Shown: positions 1,052 to 15,583 of the stretch, in pieces | Position numbering within the stretch: the stretch's first letter is position 1 | Layout of the letters: the number at the start of each line of letters is the position of its first letter | Virus record (IMG/VR): IMGVR_UViG_2585427970_000001 | Length of the DNA stretch: 64,000 nucleotides | Source: a virus | Taxonomy: Duplodnaviria; Heunggongvirae; Uroviricota; Caudoviricetes | Strand: one strand, 5' to 3' | Translations under genes and position numbers: made by a program | The notes under the pieces: generated by a model | The model's database searches: none | Told to the model about the DNA's origin: nothing | What the model saw: the letters and a program-made list of their open reading frames with translations, nothing else

Positions 1052-4000
1052 TTAATATACGATCTGGTCTACATGATCACCAAAATCATCATCGTCGTCG
1101 TCATCATCGCCACCATCTACTGCTGGCCAATCAACAAACCAGCCAGCGTAAAGATGCAGCGTTCGGAGAACATCACTTGCGGGAGCATCAAGGGTGTTAA
1201 CGAATCCCATATAGCTATTGGGATTTGCCCCAGCTATGGCTTCAGCGATCATGTCCTCGGTAATGTCACCGAGATAATGCTTAAACGCCCGGAAACTTCT
1301 TCATTATCATCAAATTCGATAATGGCATCTCCGCCTAATGGCGCTGCGATTTTAATCTGCATTATTTAGCTCCTTTGCCACACCTAATAACAGTTCCAGC
1401 AATCCGTCACCATTCATCAGTGATGCGGCAGCGGCCTCTTTGTCATGATACAACTGAAGAGCCATAGAGAATACTTCCGTTGCTGACGTTTTGGAAATAG
1501 TCGGTGATTTCTGCCGAATTTTCCCGGAGTTACTCACTGAGGCTGGCGGGTATACCTTCGCCATATAAATATTACTCAATCGAGATCTGAAGCACCATTC
1601 AGGCTTGCCACGCCCACCGATATTAACGAAAGATGGCTTATCCCCTTCAACATTGGCCTTCAGGAATGACCGGGCTTTCTCTAACAAACCAGGGTTACTG
1701 TACTCAAGATGATGACCCAGCTCGTGCCACAGTGCATTTGCATTTTCATCGTGCAAATCGACAGCAACAACACCATTAAGATTTGCATACGCCCTACCCT
1801 TGTGGTGAATTACCCTTGATAAGGTTGATATTTTCCCGCCGGTCAGGCGATAAATATCAGCAAGTTCCTTGCGCAGGTCTATTCCACCATTCTGTCCAGC
1901 GCGGGCTTCTTCCACTTCTTCCGTGATAAAAGAGTCGGCCCACTCAAGAGCTTTTTCTTCTGATACAGATGAGTTGGCGATCGCACTGTTCATGGCAGAT
2001 AACACTTTCTCGTAGACCGAATCCATACTTCGCTGATTCATTTGCCAGCGTGTCTGCGGGTTATATGAGAATCGCTTAAGTAGTTGGTCAAGCTGCTCAA
2101 GTTCTTCTTCACTGACATACTTTTTAGCCTCACCAATAATGCCAGGGAGAATATTGCCGTTAGGATTAAACGCTCGCGAAAGGAAGAGTTTCAGCGCCCC
2201 ATGCCCTCCGATGCTTCAATATCACCAATAACCGGTTAACAATGGCCGCACTCTTCGGATTAGCATCCGCCAACGCTCTGGCTACGATTTGCAGGACGAT
2301 ACGACCTCACGCTGCATATCAGTCCTGATCTCATCAATAAACTCTGGCGTTATGCCGTGCTCTTTAAGGATATCCCGGCCTTCCGCCGTTACCCCATCGA
2401 TATCACCGACATGTTTATTAACACGACTTTGCAATGCCTTAAATGCCTTCAGAATTCCACGGGAATCATCCGCTTTACTAACGGCCTTCCTGAATGCTGG
2501 CAAGAAGTCTGAGTTAACCTCATTTTGTTGATCGGCCCACTGAATGGAGGCTTCTTTCATCTCGTCCAGAGTCAGATCACCCAACGCGGTATGGTCTGTG
2601 AATATGAGCGACAACCTCTGAACCATTTCTGCCAATGGTGATGCCGAATGCGCCGCGCTAAGGAATGCTTTCACCCTGGTTGGGCGAATGGAAAACCAGT
2701 CAATAGCTGGTGGCATATCTCCGTTTTGTATCGCCTGCGCTATCTCATCAAAGCCATCGCGCCCAAGGGAAGATGCGTGATTTAACAATCCGCGAAGTAA
2801 CGAATTGCTGATACCGAATAATCGGCACCATTTATTCACGTCGGCAACAGGCATTCGAACAAAATGCGCAAGCACTTGTACAAGCTGTTCATCCTGGGGA
2901 TCTGTACGGGAAAGCAGCCTGATCAGATGAATAATGTCTTTGATGCCGGATGCCCGATGTAATAGCAAGCTGGTATATGGAGCAACACCGTTGTAACTAC
3001 CGCCGGAAGCTGACTCGAAAAGACCGCCGGATATCCCTTGCATACCTTCGTTTTCCAGTTCCTGAGATACCTGGCGAAGGATATCCTGTAACGACACATC
3101 GCCGCCGCCAAACATATCCCGAGCGCCTGGCCCTGATGCTGTAACTCATCATTGATACGTTGCGCCATCAATTTAAAGGCGGTGGCCATACGCTTCGCGC
3201 TACGGTTATTCGCGACGATGAACAACGCGAGTGCTTTCACTTCCGGGGCCGTTTCGCTGAACATATCCCCCCTGAGCAATAACATCGGTAATATGCTGGC
3301 CTGACTCCTTCGATTGCCTTACCAGGTCTACCGCATCTTTCAATGCCGCCAGCGCCTTTTTATCGAGGCTATCCGCTGTCTCAATGCCATCAACAATAGT
3401 TGTCACAGCCTGCTTGTGCGCTTCTCCTGATAAAGCCTGCATCTGGACAAAATCATTGGCTGCCGCATTAAGCGCCGTCAGAACATTACGCATATCCGGA
3501 TCAGGTTCTTCTGCAACCATCCTTACTAGGCGCGCATCCTTATATGCCTTGGCAAAGATCGCGTTTTGTATACGGTCTACAAGTTGCCGTGTTGGTCGCC
3601 CATCTTCAGTTACAAGGCCAGCCGCCTGTGTGGCACCAACTTGCGTCATAAATCCGCGAATAAACGCGTCATTACTGCGGCTAAGCAGATCTCCGCTTTC
3701 TGACGGATTAAACAGCGCCATCATCGCCGGTGTTATGCTGTCGGCATCAACAAAAGCCTTTTCACTGGCTGCCATTTCCTGAAGATCAGAAATATTTGAG
3801 TCCTTGGCAAACTGAACGCGGTCAACCTTCGTTAACCGGCGGCGCACCAGTACCGGAGCCGTCATTGATTCAACCTTTTCAGTACGTATGCCGAATTCGG
3901 TCGCATGTTCAATCAGGTACTCCCGATACCGATCCGCATTACCGTCCTGATAGGCTTTAATGATCCCCATGGTACGTCCATTACCTGACTCAACTGCATT

Positions 4001-4336
4001 GTCCTCACCAATTATCGGTGCGCCATGGCTGGATAATCCGGAATCGGTAAGCTGAGCAGGCCGCAAATCTTTGGATATCTGGTTAACCTGAAGAAGGCTG
4101 GATGCGCGGGTCCGGTCGCGCGGCTGAAGTTCCTGGGGATAGTCAGGATTAATTTTCCCATCCAGAGTATTGGATACCAAAATAGCTGAGGCATCGACGA
4201 TATCAAACGCTGTTTTTACCTCGTCTCCCTTCGCTGTCACCACATACGAAACCCGCCCATAATCGGGCAGGTTCTTTAGCAGCTCGATCAGCGTTTCTAT
4301 GCTGGTGGCCATTACCACCTGATCGCTTAAGCTCAT
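1052..4336 (-). pseudogene. Large DdrB-like virion-associated protein gene (about 1090 codons) broken into several reading-frame pieces
   Basis: Collinear minus-strand ORFs 3206..4336, 2282..3115, 1352..2041, 1052..1252 plus a protein-like out-of-frame bridge 3117..3285; position downstream of darA/ddrA as in P1; HELGHH motif in the 1352..2041 piece. Confidence 0.4.
1080..1106 (-). repeat. GAT/GAC trinucleotide tract encoding poly-Asp (DDDDDDDD)
   Basis: atcatcatcgtcgtcgtcatcatcgcc on plus strand; ORF 1052..1252 contains GGDDDDDDDDFGD. Confidence 0.7.
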
Positions 4337-4435
4337 CCCTGTTACGCCTTATCCAATGTGCCGCCCCCTACGCTCCTCATAGTGGGGATATAAGGCACAG
4401 TTTTCCTCCCGGCTATTTTTGCTTAAAATAGTGAC

Positions 4436-5644
4436 ATGAAACAACAGGTGTCATTCAAATTCCGGTTAAAACCAGATGGTCAACAGGAGCGTCAAATGAG
4501 GCGCTTTGCCGGAGCTTGTCGTTTCGTTTTCAACCGTGCTCTGGCGCTTCAGAATGAGAATCATGAGGCCGGTAAAAAATACATCCCTTACACGAAAATG
4601 GCTTCCTGGTTGGTTGAGTGGAAAAAAGACACTGAAACCGAATGGCTTAAAGATTCTCCCTCACAGCCATTGCAACAGTCACTGAAAGACCTTGAGCGGG
4701 CTTACAAAAACTTCTTCCGGAAGCGGGCAGCTTTTCCCCGATTCAAAAAGCGGGGACAGAATGATGCATTCCGCTACCCGCAGGGTGTTAAGCTCGATCA
4801 GGAAAACAGCCGTATTTTTCTGCCGAAACTTGGCTGGATGCGCTACCGGAATAGCCGTCAGGTCACGGGTATTGTGAAAAATGTTACTGTCAGCCAGTCC
4901 TGCGGTAAGTGGTACATCAGTATTCAGACAGAAAGAGAGGTATCCACTCCTGTTCACCCTTCAGCATCAATGGTCGGACTGGATGCTGGCGTGGCTAAAC
5001 TCGCCACGCTGTCAGATGGCACAGTCTTTGAACCTGTAAATAGTTTTCAGAAAAACCAGAAGAAGCTGGCGAGACTTCAGCGACAGTTAAGCCGCAAGGT
5101 CAAATTCAGCAACAACTGGCAGAAGCAGAAACGCAAAATACAGCGACTGCATTCCCGTATCGCAAATATCCGCAGGGACTACCTTCACAAAGTCACAACG
5201 ACCGTCAGCAAAAACCACGCAATGATTGTCATTGAGGATTTGAAGGTTAAATACATGTCAAAGTCAGCGGCGGGAACGATAAGTCATCCGGGTCGCAATG
5301 TCCGGGCAAAATCAGGTTTAAACCGTTCGATACTGGATCAGGGCTGGTATGAAATGCGCCGCCAGCTTGAGTACAAGCAGCTCTGGCGTGGCGGTCAGGT
5401 GCTTGCTGTTCCGCCAGCGTACACAAGCCAGCGTTGCGCGTGCTGTGGTCATACAGCGAAAGAAAATCGCCTGTCACAAAGTAAATTCAGATGCCAGGTA
5501 TGTGGATATACAGCGAACGCCGATGTAAACGGCGCTCGTAACATTTTAGCGGCGGGGCACGCCGTACTTGCCTGTGGAGGGATGGTGCAGTCAGGCCGCC
5601 CGTTGAAGCAGGAACCCACCGAAATGATTCAGGCGACAGCCTGA
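4436..5644 (+). CDS. tnpB: TnpB RNA-guided endonuclease (IS200/IS605 OrfB)
   Basis: 402 aa; RuvC-like motifs [22 protein letters not shown]; zinc finger CACCGH..CQVCGY; N-terminal region typical of TnpB. Confidence 0.9.
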
Positions 5645-5690
5645 ACGTAGCAGGAATCCACGCCCTTCGGGGCGTGGAGGATGTCACGCT
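5540..5690 (+). ncRNA. Putative omega-RNA (reRNA) scaffold overlapping tnpB 3' end and right end
   Basis: Perfect hairpin ccacgccc-ttcg-gggcgtgg at about 5660-5680 just 3' of tnpB stop; position as expected for TnpB guide RNA; boundaries not determinable by eye. Confidence 0.3.
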
Positions 5691-6049
5691 GCCTCTTTAA
5701 TGTTGGCGGCTATCCATGCCGCCGTGTGCTGTTTAACCTGGTCCAGGTCGATGTATGTGCCAACATATTGACTCAAGTCCTGTAACGTACCGATAAATGC
5801 ATCAGTGCTCTGATCGACGAATTTATCAGCCAGGAAATCAGCAACCAGTTTTGGCACACCATCATGTACCGAAGGTTGTTTTTCCTCGCCACTACTGCCG
5901 CCGGACGCGCCGTACCCCATCTGTTGCATGATCTGGTCAATTTCATCGCTGATATCCAGCAACTCCATGCCACTCGCGGTAGCCGCTTTGGACATCAGAG
6001 CATCCAACTTATCGCTGAGGTCCATTAACTCAATAGCTGATAGTGTCAT
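5684..6049 (-). CDS. DdrA-like small protein of dar operon
   Basis: 121 aa ORF immediately downstream of, and overlapping, the darA-like ORF; assignment by position only. Confidence 0.4.
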   Translation of the reverse strand: MTLSAIELMDLSDKLDALMSKAATASGMELLDISDEIDQIMQQMGYGASGGSSGEEKQPSVHDGVPKLVADFLADKFVDQSTDAFIGTLQDLSQYVGTYIDLDQVKQHTAAWIAANIKEAA

Positions 6050-7965
6050 GCCGCTACCCCCGCTTTCTGGATTGCTACCAGCAGATCAGCCAGGTGGCGA
6101 GCAGCACCGTTAACCAGCTCTTCGTTTTCCTCAAAACGTCCGGCAGCCTGAAGGGCAGCAATCGCTTCCCGGACATTGCCCCGGGCGTTACGGATCTCCG
6201 CCATGTCAGTGCTTTGCATATCCATCACGCTATTGAGATATTCAATGGCTTTATTAGCCTCTGCATCTGCTTCGCTAACCGTTTCATCAGGCTGTGCCGG
6301 GACCGGTTCTGGTTGAGTAATCTCACCGACTTCGGCCTGCAATGCATTGATCATGCTCTGCACCATTTTCTCGATGCCAGCGCCCCCAGGAAACGCAATA
6401 TTGGGGAAAGTTTTTTGAAACTGAGTTTTCAGCATTACGCGGAACTCGTCTGGTGAGCTGGTGGCCAGCTCCAGAGCTTTTTGTGCATATTTGCCAAACG
6501 GACCATTAGTAAGTGTCTTCGCCAGGAAGTCGAAAGAATCCTCGCGAGGCAATAACTTCAGGTCGTACTCACTCATTTGCTGATCAGAAAGCGGGGTATC
6601 GTAAGTAACAATGCCGTAGCGTGCATATTCATAATACGGGTCACCTTCATCAGGGCGCGGCAGAATTGCTTTGTTACCTTCAGGTATTGCGCCAGGGGCC
6701 GCCGGACGCATTTGCAGGGCATATCGATATGCACCTACAGAGACTTCTGGTTCAGGCAAAGAGCTACCGGTATCCTCCGCTGATTCAGGTTCGACGTTTT
6801 CCGGTTTATGTTCTTCTGGTTGGACCAGATATTCCGATACATTACCCGCTTTATAGGCTTTAAACAGCTTGCCGATCGCATCTGCCATGTCCACACCCTG
6901 TATGGATTTAGCCTTGATCATGTACACGCTGCCATCCGAATCGGTTAACTGGATATACCCTTCGCCGTCCTCAATGAATTGCTTCATTGATGCACCATTA
7001 CTGAGCGTCACTTCCCCGTTCATATGCATACGATTTTTGATACTGGCAAGGCGATCCGTCAGCGCGCGAGAGTACCCACCAGTCATCCCCGCAGGAGCAA
7101 TGGTATCGCGCCCACCAGTGCGATTGAGCTGATCAATCTCCGTCTGCAAACGCTCATTCTCTTCATAAAGAGAATCCGCTTCCGATGCAACAGCGTTAAT
7201 TTTCTGCTCCAGATCTGCCTTCTGCCCTTCTACCGCTGCCACCTGATCCGCGAGGTCGCTCATGGCATCCTCTTTCTGGTCACTGTCAGCCTGTAGTTGG
7301 GTTATTTCATCAACAAGGGCTTTTTTCTTCTTCTGCGCACGCTGGAATTTTGCCGAGTTTTTCTCTGCAAGGTTGGCAAGTTTCATGGTGACCTGCGCCA
7401 GCGTCATATCACGTCCACTCATCGGAGCAACGGTGTGAGTAACGTCTTTTTTATTCAGTAAGAACTGGAAAGCAACCAGCGTATCGCTATTGGTGATCCG
7501 GTTTTCCGCTGTCGGGCTATGAAACAGAATGCTGATAGTCTGACCATCACTGAGCGGAATAATGGCTGGCAGGACCGGCAGCCCGTTAACGTTACGTGCC
7601 CGACCAATTTCAGCGCCGCCGATCGCGCGCGCGCCGCTCTGGGCCACATCGCCCGTTTTATCACTCCCCGCAGAGATTCCGGTACCATTCAGCTTCTGGT
7701 TCAATGCCCGGACAAATGCCTGCATGGTCCGGTGTAACTGCAAACGAGTAGAACTAATCGCCTCCAGTAAATCCGTAGCACACCAGTGGATCGGCGTGTC
7801 ATAGAAGAACGTAGCCTCGATTTCCTCCAGGGTGTTGGATTCCGTCATCAGATAGCGGTCCTCACCGGCCATTAATGCGCGATATTCATCATCAGTCACT
7901 GGCGGGGGAAGCGCGTCAAGCCCAGGTTTGATCGTCACCCCTTTATTGATATTGAACTGTTCCAT
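6046..7965 (-). CDS. darA: DarA-like antirestriction / head internal protein
   Basis: 639 aa; coiled-coil central region; preceded by an ORF sharing a KNSAKFQ block (hdf-like), matching the P1 hdf-darA arrangement. Confidence 0.55.
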   Translation of the reverse strand: MEQFNINKGVTIKPGLDALPPPVTDDEYRALMAGEDRYLMTESNTLEEIEATFFYDTPIHWCATDLLEAISSTRLQLHRTMQAFVRALNQKLNGTGISAGSDKTGDVAQSGARAIGGAEIGRARNVNGLPVLPAIIPLSDGQTISILFHSPTAENRITNSDTLVAFQFLLNKKDVTHTVAPMSGRDMTLAQVTMKLANLAEKNSAKFQRAQKKKKALVDEITQLQADSDQKEDAMSDLADQVAAVEGQKADLEQKINAVASEADSLYEENERLQTEIDQLNRTGGRDTIAPAGMTGGYSRALTDRLASIKNRMHMNGEVTLSNGASMKQFIEDGEGYIQLTDSDGSVYMIKAKSIQGVDMADAIGKLFKAYKAGNVSEYLVQPEEHKPENVEPESAEDTGSSLPEPEVSVGAYRYALQMRPAAPGAIPEGNKAILPRPDEGDPYYEYARYGIVTYDTPLSDQQMSEYDLKLLPREDSFDFLAKTLTNGPFGKYAQKALELATSSPDEFRVMLKTQFQKTFPNIAFPGGAGIEKMVQSMINALQAEVGEITQPEPVPAQPDETVSEADAEANKAIEYLNSVMDMQSTDMAEIRNARGNVREAIAALQAAGRFEENEELVNGAARHLADLLVAIQKAGVAA

Positions 7966-7966
7966 G

Positions 7967-8578
7967 TTAATTTCCTGCTTTCAGTTGCTTAAGACGGCGT
8001 TTGAGTTCGCCATTTCGGGCCTTTTCGTTATTGAGTCGGCCTGTCTCCTTATCCAGCTTCGCCCGCAAATCAGTGATCTGCTGTTGATTGAAAGACACCG
8101 AGTTCTGCGCTGATTTATAAGCGGCAACCACCTGAACATTCCGCTGTTTTGCCTCTTGCAGGCGCTGAAAGTTGGATTTTACTGCCGGTTTCTTGTCTAC
8201 CGGATTGGCAACACGTTTCGCTTTGGCGATCAGTGATTTCTGGAATTTTGCGGAGTTTTTGCGGGCCGCTTGCCCCATGACGGTACCAAGCGTCTTGATA
8301 TCCGGCGACTGAGCGTTAGGAATAGCTTTTCCATTCAGCTTCACAGACGATATATCGCCAGTATCGTTTACCTGTATGGCAAGAATTTGTCCATCGTTAA
8401 GAACCAGCTTTGCGGTTTTAACTTTAACGCCATCTTTCGTTGTTGCGCGGTTGCTGGAGTCAACCTCAATTACCGTAACACCGGTTTTATTGATCGCCGC
8501 GATAAGGGATTTCAGCCCCTTTTCATTAACCTGGTCAAAATCGACCGTTGCATACTTATTTTTCGTCATCTGACACAT
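7967..8578 (-). CDS. hdf: Hdf-like protein (homolog of DarA fragment)
   Basis: 203 aa; shares sequence block (..KNSAKFQ..) with the downstream DarA-like protein. Confidence 0.5.
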   Translation of the reverse strand: MCQMTKNKYATVDFDQVNEKGLKSLIAAINKTGVTVIEVDSSNRATTKDGVKVKTAKLVLNDGQILAIQVNDTGDISSVKLNGKAIPNAQSPDIKTLGTVMGQAARKNSAKFQKSLIAKAKRVANPVDKKPAVKSNFQRLQEAKQRNVQVVAAYKSAQNSVSFNQQQITDLRAKLDKETGRLNNEKARNGELKRRLKQLKAGN

Positions 8579-8999
8579 CCTGTGCGAGATTTATTACGTA
8601 ACTTCTGCGGATTTGCTGAGTAACAGGGAAAATCCGATACAACGGGTTAATGAACGAGTCGCCATGCGTAACCATGACGTTGAAATGCCACAGTCGCTCT
8701 CCTTTACCCATATATTCAGTGGGTATGTACAACCATTCACTGTTTTCGCCCTGTTCAGCCGACGTCAAACAACGTTGTTCGCCTTCAATCACTGTCGTCG
8801 GCTTCTGAACATCGCGGATCCAATATCTGACCGTTGCGCCGCGCAAAAACGGGAATTTAGACCGGTATTTGAACGGCACCCGGATGAAACCCGGTTTAAT
8901 TTCCACATCACCAAGTTCTAAATGCGTGATGTCCTTGCGTTTTAGCAAATAGCGATCGGCTAAGGCTAACGCAAGAACGCATACACCCCAGCCAATCAT
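8556..8999 (-). CDS. Hypothetical protein with N-terminal hydrophobic segment (possible LydB-like lysis regulator)
   Basis: 147 aa ORF overlapping stop of upstream holin-like gene; assignment by position. Confidence 0.3.
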   Translation of the reverse strand: MIGWGVCVLALALADRYLLKRKDITHLELGDVEIKPGFIRVPFKYRSKFPFLRGATVRYWIRDVQKPTTVIEGEQRCLTSAEQGENSEWLYIPTEYMGKGERLWHFNVMVTHGDSFINPLYRIFPVTQQIRRSYVINLAQDVSDDEK

Positions 9000-9325
9000 T
9001 TCCCGCCTCCCTTTTTCACCAAACTTGTAAGAACATTCAGAATGCTATCGATATTCACTCGTTTCATCCCTGAAATCACCTCATGACCGTTATTGCTGGC
9101 TATCGTTACCATTAAGTACGTAATTGATAACTCCCAGCCCTCGTGTTGCCCCAATAGGTACGCCACCGCGCCAGCTGTCACTGCAACAAAGATCTCCGTA
9201 ACCAATCCCAACAAATTGCCAGACTGGCGACCGTCTCGGACATCCATCAGGAACGTGCCTATCCCACCAATTACTGAAAGCAGGAGCGCAATAGCAACTG
9301 GAGCTAATTCCTGTGTGTCAAGCAC
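8996..9325 (-). CDS. Holin-like small membrane protein (LydA-like)
   Basis: 109 aa, 2-3 predicted hydrophobic helices, charged C-terminus KKGGGK. Confidence 0.5.
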   Translation of the reverse strand: MLDTQELAPVAIALLLSVIGGIGTFLMDVRDGRQSGNLLGLVTEIFVAVTAGAVAYLLGQHEGWELSITYLMVTIASNNGHEVISGMKRVNIDSILNVLTSLVKKGGGK

Positions 9326-9392
9326 AAGTTCCCTCCTACGTTGTCAGGAGGTAATGGTATGCAAAGTAACTTCTCAACCGGTCATTTGTTGC

Positions 9393-9674
9393 TTAAGAGG
9401 CATTTCTATTGAGGTACGAATCGATAATCCTTTGTAACCGTTCAAGAATGAGCCTGTTATTGATGCTGCAAATAATAGTCACGCAAGTCTGAAGACTTTC
9501 ATCCATACCCTTATATTCCGCGAAATACATGCCTATAAAGCCTGCAAGTACGGCAGCAATACACTCGGCCAGCAATTGCCTGCATGACACTTCGTAACGT
9601 TTTTCACGAACCCCATTCAGAAACGAATGCACCCCGCCAAGGATGGAAAGGAGCATTATTGTGAAATCAAACAT
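9393..9674 (-). CDS. Holin-like small membrane protein, paralog of 8996..9325
   Basis: 93 aa, similar hydrophobic helix layout, first gene of minus-strand operon. Confidence 0.4.
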   Translation of the reverse strand: MFDFTIMLLSILGGVHSFLNGVREKRYEVSCRQLLAECIAAVLAGFIGMYFAEYKGMDESLQTCVTIICSINNRLILERLQRIIDSYLNRNAS

Positions 9675-9801
9675 AACTATTTCCTCAATAGTGAATTAAA
9701 TATCATTGGGAAACGGTATGTACTTTGTGATTTCCACACATACTGGTTTTTGTTAATTAAAATCAGCAGCTTGCTATAAATAACGATAGTGAGCAGAAAA
9801 T

Positions 9802-10362
9802 ATGCTAATAGGCTATATACGCGTATCAACAAATGAACAAAACACTGCTTTACAACGAAATGCCCTTGAAAGCGCAGGATGTGAGCTAATTTTTGAGGAC
9901 AAGGCGAGCGGCAAAAAGGCTGAGCGCCCTGGGTTAAAAAAGGTACTCCGTATGCTTTCCAGAGGTGATACCCTGGTCGTATGGAAGTTAGACCGTCTTG
10001 GGCGCAGCATGCGTCACTTAGTTGTGCTGGTGGAAGAGCTGCGTGACAGAGGCATTAACTTCCGGAGTCTCACTGACTCCATCGACACCAGTACACCAAT
10101 GGGGCGCTTTTTCTTTCACGTAATGGGGGCGCTGGCAGAAATGGAACGTGAGCTTATCGTTGAACGTACACGCGCTGGACTTGATGCAGCTCGCGCAGAA
10201 GGTCGTATAGGTGGGCGTCGACCTAAATACCAAGAAGAAACATGGCAGCAAATGCGGCGATTGCTGGAGAAGGGCATCCCCCGTAAGCAGGTTGCAATCA
10301 TCTATGATGTGGCTGTTTCCACGCTTTATAAGAAGTTTCCGGCGTCATCCTTTCAATCCTAA
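9802..10362 (+). CDS. cin: Serine recombinase DNA invertase (Cin/Gin/Pin/Hin family)
   Basis: MLIGYIRVSTNEQNTALQRNAL..DTLVVWKLDRLGRSMRHL..GRFFFHVMGALAEMERELIVERT; near-identical motif pattern to Gin/Cin. Confidence 0.9.
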   Translation: MLIGYIRVSTNEQNTALQRNALESAGCELIFEDKASGKKAERPGLKKVLRMLSRGDTLVVWKLDRLGRSMRHLVVLVEELRDRGINFRSLTDSIDTSTPMGRFFFHVMGALAEMERELIVERTRAGLDAARAEGRIGGRRPKYQEETWQQMRRLLEKGIPRKQVAIIYDVAVSTLYKKFPASSFQS

Positions 10363-10380
10363 ACCTTGGTTTAAGAGAAC
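10355..10380. promoter_or_regulatory. cix/gix-like crossover site (left), overlapping cin stop codon
   Basis: caatcctaaacc-tt-ggtttaagagaa resembles gix TTATCCAAAACC-TC-GGTTTACAGGAA; at outer edge of inverted repeat. Confidence 0.55.
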
Positions 10381-10555
10381 TCGGTACCAGCGGTGAAAAG
10401 ATCCCCCTGTTGAGTACGGCTAACACATGGAGTGCGCGCCAGACTTTCAACGGCGGGATCACCGGGGCGCTGACAGGGAACGCCGACACCGCGACGAAAT
10501 TGAAAACAGCTCGAACAATCAACGGGGTGGGATTTGATGGTTCTAAAAACATTGA
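10364..10555 (+). repeat. Left inverted repeat of invertible tail-fibre segment
   Basis: About 190 bp near-identical to reverse complement of 13553-13745. Confidence 0.75.
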
Positions 10556-11525
10556 GCTAACGGCGGAAGATTTAAATCTTGAACAAACCGTAGAATTAGC
10601 CGTAGGAGCATTACAGAAAAACCAGAACGGCGCAGATATTCCAAACAAAGATAAATTTACGCAAACAATAGGTGCTTGCCGCTCTTTTCATGGTGCTATT
10701 AGCACAGGTGCAGGAAACTGGACGACGGCACAATTGATTGAATGGCTGGATTCTCAAGGGGCATTCAATCACCCATACTGGATGTGCAAATGTTCATGGT
10801 CATACGGCAATAATAAAATTATTACCGATACTGGTTGTGGAACTATTCATCTTGCAGGTTGCGTTATTGAGGTTATGGGTAATAAAGGTGCCATGACTAT
10901 CCGTGTAACCACCCCGAGCACTTCCAGCGGTGGCGGAACTACTAATGCACAATTTACTTATATAAACCATGGCGCAGATTACGCCCCAGGCTGGCGGCGT
11001 GACTACAGCACAAAAAACCAGCAACCTGCATTTGCTTTAGGGCAAACAGGAAGCACTGTCGGAAATGATAAAGCTGTTGGCTGGAACTGGAATAGCGGGG
11101 TCTATAACGCAAATATTGGTGGCGCATCGACATTAATCCTCCACTTCAATATGAATACGGGGAGCTGTCCTGCTGTACAGTTCCGCGTGAATTACAGAAA
11201 TGGCGGAATCTTTTATCGTTCAGCTCGTGATGGTTATGGCTTTGAAGCTGACTGGTCAGAGTTTTACACCACAACCCGCAAACCCTCTGCGGGAGATGTT
11301 GGTGCATACACGCAGGCAGAATGTAACTCAAGGTTTATTACAGGTATTCGCCTTGGCGGTCTGTCATCTGTTCAGACATGGAATGGTCCCGGCTGGTCTG
11401 ACAGGTCAGGTTATGTCGTTACGGGTTCAGTTAACGGAAACCGTGATGAATTAATTGATACAACTCAGGCAAGGCCAATTCAGTATTGCATTAATGGAAC
11501 GTGGTATAACGCAGGGAGTATTTAA
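10410..11525 (+). CDS. Alternative tail-fibre variable C-terminal segment (Sv'-like), not joined to constant region in this orientation
   Basis: Starts inside the inverted repeat with [31 protein letters not shown], the same block found in the full-length fibre gene on the other strand. Confidence 0.6.
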   Translation: MSTANTWSARQTFNGGITGALTGNADTATKLKTARTINGVGFDGSKNIELTAEDLNLEQTVELAVGALQKNQNGADIPNKDKFTQTIGACRSFHGAISTGAGNWTTAQLIEWLDSQGAFNHPYWMCKCSWSYGNNKIITDTGCGTIHLAGCVIEVMGNKGAMTIRVTTPSTSSGGGTTNAQFTYINHGADYAPGWRRDYSTKNQQPAFALGQTGSTVGNDKAVGWNWNSGVYNANIGGASTLILHFNMNTGSCPAVQFRVNYRNGGIFYRSARDGYGFEADWSEFYTTTRKPSAGDVGAYTQAECNSRFITGIRLGGLSSVQTWNGPGWSDRSGYVVTGSVNGNRDELIDTTQARPIQYCINGTWYNAGSI

Positions 11526-11527
11526 TT

Positions 11528-12061
11528 ATGATGCACTTAAAAAACATTATTGCTGGCAATCCTAAAACAAAAGAGCAATACCAGCTAACAAAGCAATTTA
11601 ACATCAAATGGCTTTATTCAGATGATGGAAAAAACTGGTATGAGGAACAAAAGAATTTCCGGCCAGACACATTGAAAATGGCCTATGACCATAACGGCGT
11701 TATTATTTGTATTGAAAAGGATGTTTCAGCAATTAATCCGGAAGGCGCAAGCGTCGTTGAATTACCTGATATTACAGCAAATCGCCGGGCTGATATTTCG
11801 GGTAAATGGATGTTCAAAGATGGCGTGGTGATAAAGCGAACTTATACCGAAGAGGAACAGAGGCAGCAGGCAGAGAATGAAAAGCAAAGCCTGTTGCAAC
11901 TTGTCAGGGATAAAACCCAGCTATGGGACTCACAGCTACGGCTGGGCATCATTTCCGACGAGAATAAACAAAAATTAACCGAGTGGATGCTCTTTGCGCA
12001 GAAAGTCGAATCCACAGACACCTCCAGCCTACCAGTAACATTTCCCGAACAACCTGAATGA
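11528..12061 (+). CDS. Tail fibre assembly chaperone (U'-like) for alternative fibre
   Basis: 177 aa, MMHLKNIIAGNPKT..; paralog of 12090..12653. Confidence 0.7.
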   Translation: MMHLKNIIAGNPKTKEQYQLTKQFNIKWLYSDDGKNWYEEQKNFRPDTLKMAYDHNGVIICIEKDVSAINPEGASVVELPDITANRRADISGKWMFKDGVVIKRTYTEEEQRQQAENEKQSLLQLVRDKTQLWDSQLRLGIISDENKQKLTEWMLFAQKVESTDTSSLPVTFPEQPE

Positions 12062-12089
12062 AACAAGGCCCGATAGCGGGCCTTAATTT

Positions 12090-12653
12090 TTATTCAGGCT
12101 TTTGTGGCCATTCAGGATTTGCCGTATCCACACGGCTTACCAGAACACTGTAGCGTTCCCATGACTCCAGTCGTGCGCGTTCCTCATCCGTCGCCATATT
12201 CAGCCTGACGGCGCGTTCCAGTGGCTGAATAACGCTTTCTGCTTCGGAAAGTAACGCGGCCTTTTGTGATTCGGCCTGTTGTTGCAGTTCCTGTTCTGTA
12301 TATTCCCTCTTTACTACTTTACCATCCAGAAACATCCATTTTCCGTTATTGTCTGCGCGACGATTTGCCGTAATATCAGGAACTTCAACTATGCTTAGCC
12401 CTTCAGGATTAATAGTTGAAACGTCTTTACTGACAGCAACGATGATGTTGTTCTCATCGTAAGCAATTTTTATGGTGTCTGGCTGAAAATTCTTTTGTTC
12501 CTCATACCAGTTTTTGCCATCTTCGCAAAAGAGCCATACCACGCCCGCTTTTTTAGTTAGCTGGTATTGTTCCGGTGTTTTCGGATTCCCGGCCTTAATA
12601 TTTTTCAGGTGCATCATCTTAAACACTCCCCACGTTGTACCATATTCCCCCAA
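12090..12653 (-). CDS. Tail fibre assembly chaperone (U-like), in expressed orientation
   Basis: 187 aa, [22 protein letters not shown]..; directly downstream of fibre gene. Confidence 0.7.
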
Positions 12654-15087
12654 TCAATTTCTGAATTGGCCTTCTGGCAACAGTGTCGACAATATCATCC
12701 GCATTGCTGTTAATTGCGGCTGTTAAAACATAACCTGACGCATCGCCAAAGCCGTAGTCGCGCCATACGTTTTTATATTCAATGCTGCCAAGACGAATAT
12801 CCCGAACGACATGATTATGCAGCCATGTGCTTAACCAGTTGTTTTCCCACACTGAACCATAAATATCGCCACTAGACGCAACTTGCGCACCACTTCCCAG
12901 CGCAAATCCCCCATCTGTTTTAAAAATGAAATCACCACCACCATCTGAACCGTTATTAATATGAACACCATCACTACCGTTATCTTTCCATAAAAACATA
13001 CGAATACTTCCGTCTTCGTTGGCGAATGTAATGTGGTGGCGGTAATTACTTTTTAATCTAAAATTGCTGCCATTAGATTCAATATCTTTATAAAGATGTA
13101 ATCCTAACTCATCAATATGTCCGATGCGCGAACCATTTGAATAGAAGCTAATAATACCATCTCCATCTTGCCTAAATCCGGTGTCGTTATCTCCCAGAAC
13201 AATGGAGTTTTCACCCAGTGCGTTATCAGTAGCACCAATAGCTAGACCTCCTTCAATTTTGGCCCCGTGGCTGACAGATATAGCACCTGTTCTCAGATTT
13301 ATAGCGAATGGCCTTAATGGGCCGATATCACCGTTTTCGCCTTGTCCTTCAGCCGTCGGAATGAAATGAAGAAAATCTTCTGAACGACGGAAAATAAGAC
13401 CGAATGCTTCATCAAATATCCGAAGCGCATTCACCGTACCAATTTTCAGTTCTCCGGTCATTTTATCGCCGGAACGCTGAACGGCGTTACCAGCTTGAGA
13501 CACGATATCCGTCAAGCCAAGATTTTCAGGAGTCAGTGTAATATCTGTAGAACCATCAAATCCCACCCCGTTGATTGTTCGAGCTATTTTCAATTTCGTC
13601 GCGGTGTCGGCGTTCCCTGTCAGCGCCCCGGTGATCCCGCCGTTGAAAGTCTGGCGCGCACTCCATGTGTTAGCCGTACTCAACAGGGGGATCTTTTCAC
13701 CGCTGGTACCGAGTTCTCTTAAACCAAGGTATTGGATAACGGCCAGTGTGCTTGTTTTAGCCAGAATATCGCGACCGACTGACGTTAAATCAGTCTGAGC
13801 TACCGTATCCTTACCAGTGAAATAAGGCAGTTTGTTTGCACCAGTCGCAAGACCAGCAAGCGCGGTTAAAGTTGCATCAAGTGGCTGTTTCCCTGCCAGC
13901 GCATTTGTCATTGTTGTCGCAAAGTTCGGGTCATTGCCAAGTGCTGCGGCAAGCTCATTCAGGGTATCAAGAGCTTCTGGTGATGAACCAACCAATGCGG
14001 ATATGGCAGCTCTTACATAAGCGGTCGTAGCAATCTGCGTGTTATTCGTACCCTGTGCAGCGGTAGGCGCAGTAGGTATTCCCGTTAATGCAGGACTTGC
14101 TAAAGGCGCTTTAAGGGCCAGAGCATTGTTGATAGTTGTGCTGTAATTCGGGTCGTTATTGATCGCAGCCGCTATTTCTTTCAGCGTATCCAGTGTACCA
14201 GGCGCACCGTTGATAAGTGCAGTTATAGCTGCCTTAACAAAGGCTGTATTTGCGATCTGCGTGCTGTTTGTACCTTGCGCTGCCGTCGGCGCGGTTGGCG
14301 TTCCTGTCAGACTCGGGCTTTCTATTGGCGCTTTGGTATCAGCCAGATCTTTTATAGACTTAACAGCTTTAGGGGTAGCCGCCATTGTTTCGCTGTCGCT
14401 GTTAGTTGCGCTACTGAGCTGAACTAATCCCTTTTGCGTTGTGCTTGCATCCTGCGCCGTATACTTGCTTTTCGCCAGATCGTAGGCTTTTTTAACTGCC
14501 AGCGAACTTGCAGCAACATCACTTCTGGTACTGGTTACAGAGTCTGAAATATCAATGCCGATCGTGCGGTTGATACGCTCGGATGTATCAATCATCTCCT
14601 GGGTAATGGCAGATACACCAGCAGGGATATTCACCGTACAAACAAGCAGCTCCCCATCTCCTAACTGATATGAATCGGTATAGGTTCTGGAAACAAATTC
14701 AGCCGCATGAATATGTGACGCGGTATTCACCTGATAGGTATCTTCTCCAAGGAGGTATCTTCCCTTCAGCACAATTGCATATTTCTTGCCTGCACTAAGT
14801 GCAAGAGAAATATCCTTACGTTGCTGAATAGTTACCTGGTAGAATTCACCAATATCCACCGACGCCGCGCCTGCGGTTTTATCACCATCCACTGAGGTGA
14901 TTAACAGGTTCATCCCACCGCCAGGCTTAGGTAAGAAACCGGCATAAAATCCCGGGTCAACAATCCCCCTGAATTTTCGGTTTAGCGCGGCTGACAGATA
15001 TGGTTCGTGGTATTGCACATCAGCCACCAGAGCCAACGACTCGGGTGATGGGTAAGTAACCGATGTGACAACTGTAACGTCATTCAT
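12619..15087 (-). CDS. Tail fibre protein S (constant N-terminal part fused to variable part inside invertible segment)
   Basis: ORF 12619..15174; likely start is ATG at 15087 (MNDVTVV) with AAGGA RBS, just after R-like stop; repeated fibre motifs and shared block with Sv'. Confidence 0.7.
13553..13745 (-). repeat. Right inverted repeat of invertible tail-fibre segment
   Basis: Reverse-complement copy of 10364-10555. Confidence 0.75.
13715..13740. promoter_or_regulatory. cix/gix-like crossover site (right)
   Basis: Reverse complement reads ttatccaatacc-tt-ggtttaagagaa. Confidence 0.55.
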
Positions 15088-15098
15088 CAAGCATATCC

Positions 15099-15533
15099 TT
15101 ATGCTGTAGTCGTGTTTATGGCCATAACTGCGGTATATGTTTTGCCCACATACAGCGAGTCTTCCTGGACACAAATAATGGCGATTGGCTTGTTCTCGTT
15201 ATCCAGAACAACCAGAGTGTTGAATGGGTAGTTTTTCCCTTCCTGCAACTGGCTTTGATCAAGGTCCATTCGGACAGTAATTATCCCGCCTGAGTAGGTT
15301 GGGACGAGGTTGATGGTGCAAAATTGACTGGTCAGTTCTGCCAGATCGAAAGCCTTTGGCAGTTCTCCAATCTCATAAGTGCCATCTCCTTTCTTAGTAA
15401 CCAGTGAACTGGTACCGAAAACGGCCTTGCTGATTAAAAATCGAGAGCCTTTGTTAATGGACGATTCAGCGCGCCGCTGATAGTAATAGTCCAACAACTG
15501 ACTCTTATAGAGGTTTGTTGAGACGTCAGACAT
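15099..15533 (-). CDS. Tail fibre operon protein (R-like)
   Basis: 144 aa ORF immediately upstream of fibre gene; by position. Confidence 0.35.
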   Translation of the reverse strand: MSDVSTNLYKSQLLDYYYQRRAESSINKGSRFLISKAVFGTSSLVTKKGDGTYEIGELPKAFDLAELTSQFCTINLVPTYSGGIITVRMDLDQSQLQEGKNYPFNTLVVLDNENKPIAIICVQEDSLYVGKTYTAVMAINTTTA

Positions 15534-15583
15534 GATTTTCCCTAATCAATGTTGTGAAGCCTCATTGTAAGAGAAGTAACTTG

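Follow-up and report, generated by a model that had tools for sequence, protein, structure and literature searches.

A Cin-type invertible tail-fibre segment with a tip cassette different from that of P1, present in both orientations in Escherichia coli JA65

The 64,000-nucleotide (nt) stretch of DNA analysed here, IMG/VR record IMGVR_UViG_2585427970_000001 (in the following "the window"), carries a gene for a DNA invertase, cin, and next to it an invertible tail-fibre segment that resembles the C-segment of phage P1. Since the 14.5 kb around the fibre gene are 100.000% identical to the PacBio contig JMJD01000001.1 (GCA_000714975.1) and the coordinates of the record are those of the window, the window represents nt 1-64000 of this contig. 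The contig is part of a PacBio/HGAP2 assembly of the uropathogenic bloodstream isolate E. coli JA65, for which an Illumina MiSeq assembly (JFFN) made from a separate DNA preparation has also been deposited (Dunitz et al. 2014, PMC4271156). A megablast search with region 9600-15300 and two 24-kb blocks matched phage P1 with about 92-93% identity over an aligning stretch of 82-84%, and hundreds of P1-like (IncY) phage-plasmids from E. coli and Salmonella with 97-98% identity. Judged by these matches, the entire window is a P1-like phage-plasmid element.

Genes and sites of the invertible segment

The features of the locus are listed in Table 1. The cin product contains a Resolvase domain (PF00239, E=3e-51, residues 3-135) and an HTH_7 domain (PF02796, E=2e-18, residues 138-181), and V6I is the only change relative to P1 Cin (185/186 amino acids (aa) identical, 99%). 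Its size, the N-terminal resolvase domain, Ser9 and the C-terminal helix-turn-helix are those of the Din-family serine DNA invertases (Cin/Gin/Hin/Pin), in agreement with a preliminary description made from the sequence of the window, which had named this open reading frame (ORF) Gin/Cin-like. The predicted cin promoters align with 99% identity to P1 (L001:1581-1801), and all four annotated hexamers (4/4) are unchanged. The 72-nt homologue of the P1 sequence annotated as 'enhancer of Cin-mediated C-segment inversion' is identical to it at 70/72 positions, both changes being synonymous for cin; binding of Fis to this stretch is predicted by homology.

Table 1. Features of the cin/C-segment locus, in window coordinates.
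Feature	Position	Strand	Basis and details
cin promoter region	9680..9763	+	P2cin 9680-9706, P1cin 9731-9763, by P1 homology
cin, serine DNA invertase, 186 aa	9802..10362	+	Ser9 in MLIGYIRVSTNEQ; domains and identity to P1 Cin
Putative recombinational enhancer (sis), 5' part of cin	9820..9891		P1 homology (L001 1721-1792)
cixL, 26-bp crossover site	10354..10379		CAATCCTAAACC TT GGTTTAAGAGAA; core TT 10366-10367; identical to P1 cixL
Left inverted-repeat arm, 190 nt	10356..10545		Base-by-base comparison
Invertible C-segment, 3,360 bp	10367..13726		In-silico inversion equals public isomers with 0 mismatches (L017, L022)
Sv', alternative fibre C-terminal part, 385 codons, presently silent	10368..11525	+	91% to P1 Sv'; PDB 8ju3
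U', tail-fibre assembly chaperone for Sv', 177 aa	11528..12061	+	Caudo_TAP E=6e-36; 95% to P1 U'
GC-rich hairpin between convergent U' and U, terminator-like on both strands	12064..12085		Consensus scan only
U, tail-fibre assembly chaperone for Sv, 175 aa	12090..12617	-	Caudo_TAP E=1e-36; 84% to P1 U
S tail fibre in present orientation, 822 aa	12619..15087	-	Sc 15087..13727, Sv 13726..12619
Right inverted-repeat arm, 190 nt	13548..13737		Base-by-base comparison
cixR, 26-bp crossover site	13714..13739		Core 13726-13727, AA on plus/TT on minus; identical to P1 cixR
R, first gene of the late tail-fibre operon, 144 aa	15099..15533	-	P1 R position and sequence
Predicted late promoter LPs	15564..15582	-	-22 box AAGTTACTT 15582-15574; -10 TACAAT 15569-15564

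The two cix sites lie in inverted orientation at the outer ends of the inverted repeats, and both cores are TT in the same reading sense; on the minus strand cixR reads TTATCCAATACC-TT-GGTTTAAGAGAA. The crossover positions correspond to P1 32224/32225 and 36480/36481. The 26-mer common to both sites, ACCTTGGTTTAAGAGAACTCGGTACC, is present in exactly two copies in the 64 kb, one per strand (0.00 expected from 100 shuffles), and a scan with a palindromised cix consensus revealed no third cix site in the 64 kb, the next best stretch having 8/26 mismatches. The outer half-sites of cixL and cixR differ at positions 10354, 10355, 10360 and 10362. The arms 10356-10545 and 13737-13548 match except for the two half-site positions 10360 and 10362 and a mismatch at 10507, and they diverge beyond; a repeat finder gives longer arms (10356-10571 / 13522-13737) that are 94% complementary. 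In the preliminary description, inverted repeats of about 190 bp had been reported with crossover sites at their outer edges, the left one overlapping the cin stop codon. The repeat length, the position of the sites at the edges and the overlap (the stop codon TAA, 10360-10362, is inside cixL) all hold; the coordinates of both sites had been 1 nt off, and the right arm, given as 13553-13745, was about 8 nt off and overran cixR. Taken as a whole the earlier observation is confirmed, with coordinates shifted by 1 to 8 bases.

On the minus strand the order is LPs, R, S (Sc followed by Sv) and U, and on the plus strand the segment contains Sv' and U'. The locus has the layout of fibre switches of the P1 C-segment and Mu G-segment type, with the constant part Sc and LPs outside and two opposed pairs of variable part and chaperone inside. 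Both boxes of LPs, a promoter predicted by homology, are identical to the annotated ones of P1. The S protein contains the domains Phage_fiber_2 and gp37_trimer, and PF26881 (Phage_P1_tail_fiber_R) was found on the identical R gene in the related contigs L005-L020. The two chaperones U and U' are 56% identical, and U' is presently located outside the late operon. The fusion of the constant region to a variable region and a chaperone on the minus strand, as proposed earlier, is what we find (the 822-aa S, then U), and both cassettes are uninterrupted as had been stated, since S, U, Sv' and U' are all open.

The alternative cassette had also been described as promoterless. Sv' has no start of its own (no start codon precedes the TTG at 10410), and its frame differs from that of cin. 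The cassette is located directly downstream of cin on the same strand. A terminator consensus scan found no convincing terminator between cin and Sv'/U', and U' has its own ATG. Read-through from cin is conceivable here, and with it a low level of U' expression. Annotation pipelines call the silent cassette a separate 'phage tail protein' or a pseudogene, and this conceals the switch.

Inversion of the segment

If the segment 10367..13726 is inverted in silico, Sc joins Sv' in frame and an uninterrupted S' protein of 839 aa results. Exactly this arrangement is found in public assemblies. One example is contig JFFN01000021.1 (L017) in the JA65 Illumina assembly, which agrees with the in-silico inversion at 14,520/14,520 positions, flanks included. 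A second copy of the cin/C-segment region is present in the PacBio contig of the window itself, at 108,270-115,334 of JMJD01000001.1 (L022), and it is identical to the flipped window 7,410-14,474 at 7,065/7,065 positions. Both orientations, as known for segments under the control of Din-family invertases, are thus found, and the products equal an inversion of 10367..13726.

The second copy also explains the size of the contig. JMJD01000001.1 has 121,080 bp, and the two copies are offset by 100,860 bp; the plasmid is therefore a circle of about 100.9 kb, and the ends of the contig are redundant by about 20.2 kb and were left untrimmed. The deposited contig accordingly inflates the plasmid by about 20 kb (about 100.9 kb, not 121 kb). 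The redundant ends are window 1-20,220 and JMJD01000001.1 100,861-121,080, and over the 7 kb that we compared the orientation of the C-segment is the sole difference between them. Reads of opposite isomers went into the two ends, and a redundant contig containing both isomers is a demonstration of heterogeneity within one culture. The switch is active, or was active during the growth of one culture. The preliminary description had considered the switch functional; inversion is borne out by the two orientations in the JA65 assemblies, and the opposite case, in which a single orientation is ever observed, does not apply with the flipped isomer present in L022 and L017.

Both isomers occur beyond JA65. 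The exact 822-aa S is public (EFA4151757.1 and others) and the present isomer is found in 18 contigs; the exact 839-aa S' is likewise public (WP_072009376.1 and others; six contigs listed, eight on locus look-up), and five more contigs from other samples have the flipped isomer (L015, L016, L018-L020). In the complete E. coli genomes, four P1-like plasmids have the Sv cassette next to cin, and five have it next to Sc. The plasmids pL9-1 and pLD93-1-90kb encode identical U and U' proteins in opposite arrangement.

It might be argued that the second orientation is an assembly artefact and that the segment is fixed as seen in the window. Short-read assemblies often break at the left repeat (L010-L013 and L019 end inside its arm), and the PacBio contig has about 20 kb of untrimmed terminal redundancy. 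However, a 3.4-kb inversion with zero mismatches cannot be invented by a long-read consensus, and in the Illumina assembly of JA65, made from paired reads of 250 bp, long enough to cross the 190-nt repeat, the flipped isomer is contiguous over both junctions. Five contigs from other samples with the flipped isomer, next to 18 with the present one, also speak against an artefact, which we consider hardly credible.

Two side observations concern the ends of contigs and the loss of cassettes. Of 26 contigs read with one or the other exact fibre protein, 16 were shown, and five of these 16 (L010-L013, L019) end in or at the left repeat, at 10384-10508. Such ends are the usual assembly break at a repeat; they are consistent with mixed orientations and no proof of them. 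In L025 (Logan SRR26063252_40, 4067-5937), a gene for a 193-aa chaperone after Sv overlaps a 468-aa fibre gene and there is no second chaperone, which suggests from the gene arrangement that a deletion of U' and Sv' collapsed the switch in that isolate.

The segment flips, and the next question is by which recombination. We consider it very probable that the locus is the Cin/C-segment host-range switch of the approximately 100.9-kb P1-like phage-plasmid of E. coli JA65. The attribution to Cin is made because the components are nearly identical to those of P1 and because of the published genetics of P1: inversion of the P1 C-segment requires the cix sites as well as cin (Iida et al. 1982, cited in PMC6906374). 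We infer from P1 and Mu that Cin catalyses the reaction, that Fis and the enhancer are needed, that LPs drives late transcription, and that the two tips have distinct receptor specificities.

According to this model, Cin would pair cixL and cixR with the Fis-bound enhancer that is located in cin itself, cleave both TT cores (10366-67 and 13726-27) with a 2-bp stagger, and religate the ends after strand rotation, so that the 3,360-bp segment would end up inverted. Because LPs, R and Sc lie outside the segment, the variable part abutting Sc would be translated as the receptor-binding C-terminal end of S, and the chaperone gene following this variable part would be co-expressed with S. The present isomer would produce Sc-Sv (822 aa) and U, the flipped isomer Sc-Sv' (839 aa) and U', and a population of lysogens would yield virions of two fibre-tip types.

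One observation weighs against the assignment to Cin. The mismatch at 10507 moves with the cassette, which narrows the exchange to the interval 10363-10506 (144 nt), with the cix core 10366-67 inside; the arms are identical over this interval, so that a crossover at the cix core is indistinguishable from any other within the 144 nt, and a RecA crossover in the identical repeat would fit too. The isomers might therefore stem from RecA-dependent recombination between the 190-nt inverted repeats, with Cin uninvolved, for instance silent. Against this, Cin is 99% identical to the functional enzyme of P1, promoters, enhancer and both cix sites are intact, the genetic requirement for cin and cix in P1 cited above points to the enzyme, and for RecA a 190-nt repeat is a poor substrate in comparison with a dedicated site-specific system. 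We regard RecA as the source of the isomers as very improbable. Nothing that we observed contradicts the explanation by Cin and the C-segment.

Fibre tips, host range and cargo

Over residues 1-518, which comprise Sc and the repeat, S has 97% identity to P1 S, and the Sv tip has 26% identity to P1 Sv over 280 aa. The search for relatives of Sv in isolated phages revealed none above 46% identity over the full length; the best are the Yersinia Mu-like phages vB_YpM_23 and vB_YpM_3, and the identity to SfMu and P2 gpH is 30-35%. Since no isolated-phage relative exceeds 46% over the full length, no characterised receptor is transferable to Sv. The alignment of both variable regions to receptor-binding domains of fibres, suggested as a check in the preliminary description, was successful for Sv', which matches PDB 8ju3 (Mu tail fibre S/S') with E=5.5e-191; for Sv, matches to the tip structures of Mu S and S' (5yvq, 8ju3) are limited to the last ~66 residues and short stretches of the shaft. 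Sv and Sv' share little beyond these last ~66 residues. By its sequence Sv' is of the P1/Mu S' type. Of 5,426 complete E. coli genomes, about 24 contain the complete Sv and U cassette.

P1 virions that carry the S fibre infect hosts of the K-12 type through the outer core of the lipopolysaccharide, whereas those with S' fail to infect K-12 and transduce Shigella flexneri and E. coli O3, for which the O-antigen is required (bioRxiv 10.1101/2022.07.24.501295). From its homology, an S'-like specificity is expected of the silent cassette, and we infer that the two isomers differ in host range. Because Sv has 26% identity to P1 Sv, its best match in an isolated phage is at 46% and the cassette occurs in about 24 of 5,426 genomes, Sv/U could encode a receptor specificity that has not yet been described for P1-like phage-plasmids; we put this forward as a tentative proposal, with about as much to be said against it as for it. 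If it is true, Sv together with an S'-type tip, which needs the O-antigen in P1, could allow such elements to pass between smooth clinical E. coli that are closed to classical P1 virions with the S fibre.

It might also be possible that the segment flips and that this is biologically neutral, the element being a domesticated phage-plasmid without infectious particles. Damage to lytic or fibre modules is found in many P1-like plasmids (PMC6906374); the relative p88_19539-2 has an insertion sequence (IS) in its silent chaperone gene; and the element itself bears cargo, namely a TnpB-type insertion and a large adhesin gene. On the other hand, all genes of the fibre operon are intact, as are the two cassettes, the morphogenesis and replication genes of the 64-kb window are collinear with those of P1-like elements (97-98% identity), and the cassettes are identical in many independent isolates, which fits purifying selection. 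A neutral switch is thus in our view unlikely.

As to the remainder of the window, two tRNA genes are present on the plus strand, tRNA-Thr(TGT) at 42780-42855 and tRNA-Met(CAT) at 44298-44373. P1 encodes tRNAs as well. The region 57,000-64,000 contains cargo that is missing from most P1-like plasmids and is covered by pAPEC201602 only. Its start is low in GC (0.34-0.40) and encodes a PapI/FaeA-like regulator (by homology to L021) and a regulator of the PapB family (58056-58559). It is followed by a giant ORF that starts with an ATG at 58865 and is still open at 64000 (>1,711 aa); the product carries at its start a type V secretion signal of the ESPR family (PF13018, E=1.6e-14) and is presumably, going by its sequence, a large autotransporter adhesin. 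At 4436-5644 (+), between a ddrB-like gene (3206-4336) and darA (6046-7965), a 402-aa TnpB-type protein with OrfB_IS605 and Cas12f1-like TNB domains is encoded. In two other P1-like plasmids an insertion of IS609 has been reported in a backbone stretch with antirestriction genes by Venturini et al.

In clinical E. coli, resistance and virulence cargo is carried by P1-like phage-plasmids, and here a large type V secretion protein is part of it. A working two-state fibre switch with a tip other than that of P1 widens the range of hosts such elements might reach. The system as such is a known and working one, with a mechanism found in textbooks since the 1980s, and identical proteins are already public under generic names. 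The combination of cassettes is undescribed in the literature that we searched, in which the diversity of C-segments is treated only in general terms.

Comparison with P1, Mu, p15B and related plasmids

The C-segment of phage P1 (NC_005856) has the same gene order and strands, identical cix sites and identical LPs boxes; Sc is 97% identical, and the identities of Cin (185/186), the enhancer (70/72), Sv' (91%), U' (95%) and U (84%) are in keeping with this. The differences concern sizes and the tip. The segment has 3,360 bp here and 4,256 bp in P1, the repeats 190 nt versus about 620 nt, the S protein 822 aa versus 987 aa, and the Sv tip is a different cassette from that of P1. A four-arm alignment showed that the P1 repeat contains two copies of the motif TATKL..INGV.FDGS about 400 bp apart, whereas each arm in the window has a single copy. 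Both fibres therefore lack a shaft module of about 133 aa (about 400 bp). At the junction 10546 / 13547, compared to P1 (L001 2446-2850), the arms of the window resemble a deletion between the motif copies, or P1 an insertion, and the change is symmetrical in both arms. If it is indeed a loss in the window, it would show that modules are exchanged in the segment with the symmetry of the repeats kept. The 4.2-kb segment, the repeats of about 0.6 kb and the Sv tip of the P1 C-segment in the strict sense are not what is found here, and in terms of sequence the locus is a variant cassette set within the P1 C-segment system.

The G-segment of Mu, inverted by Gin, follows the same logic, with the constant part outside and opposed S/U and S'/U' cassettes inside. 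Sv'-U'-U of the window has 86-89% DNA identity to the G-segments of Mu and D108, and Sv' matches the Mu S' tip (8ju3). The invertase here is Cin, in Mu it is Gin. Mu has repeats of only 34 bp, its invertase gene is located on the opposite side, and neither its enzyme nor its backbone is that of P1.

The Min system of p15B is also located on a P1-related plasmid, and there a Din-family invertase rearranges the 3' ends of a tail-fibre gene. Min has six crossover sites and generates many isomers. A Min-like multiple inversion system or shufflon was rejected for the window, which has only two cix sites in its 64 kb.

The cassette pair of the window is also found in other P1-like phage-plasmids, three examples being pL9-1 (NZ_CP142045), pLD93-1-90kb (NZ_CP047663) and p88_19539-2 (NZ_CP077493); they share its Sv/U cassette (97-99% identical) and its repeats of 190 nt. 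The annotation of their genes is generic only ('tail fiber protein', 'recombinase family protein'). In pLD93-1 the fused fibre is longer, at 1,079 aa, and the Sv' side contains about 590 additional bp. In p88_19539-2 (L003, NZ_CP077493.1, from an O111:H11 strain) the Sv/U cassette is in the silent position (6877-8742) and U is split by ISVsa5 (IS4-like); NZ_CP077569.1, a sister plasmid that is also O111:H11, carries Sv/U at the expressed position. Among plasmids of the kind of these three both orientations are found, as in JA65, and their backbones differ, with 95-96% identity overall.

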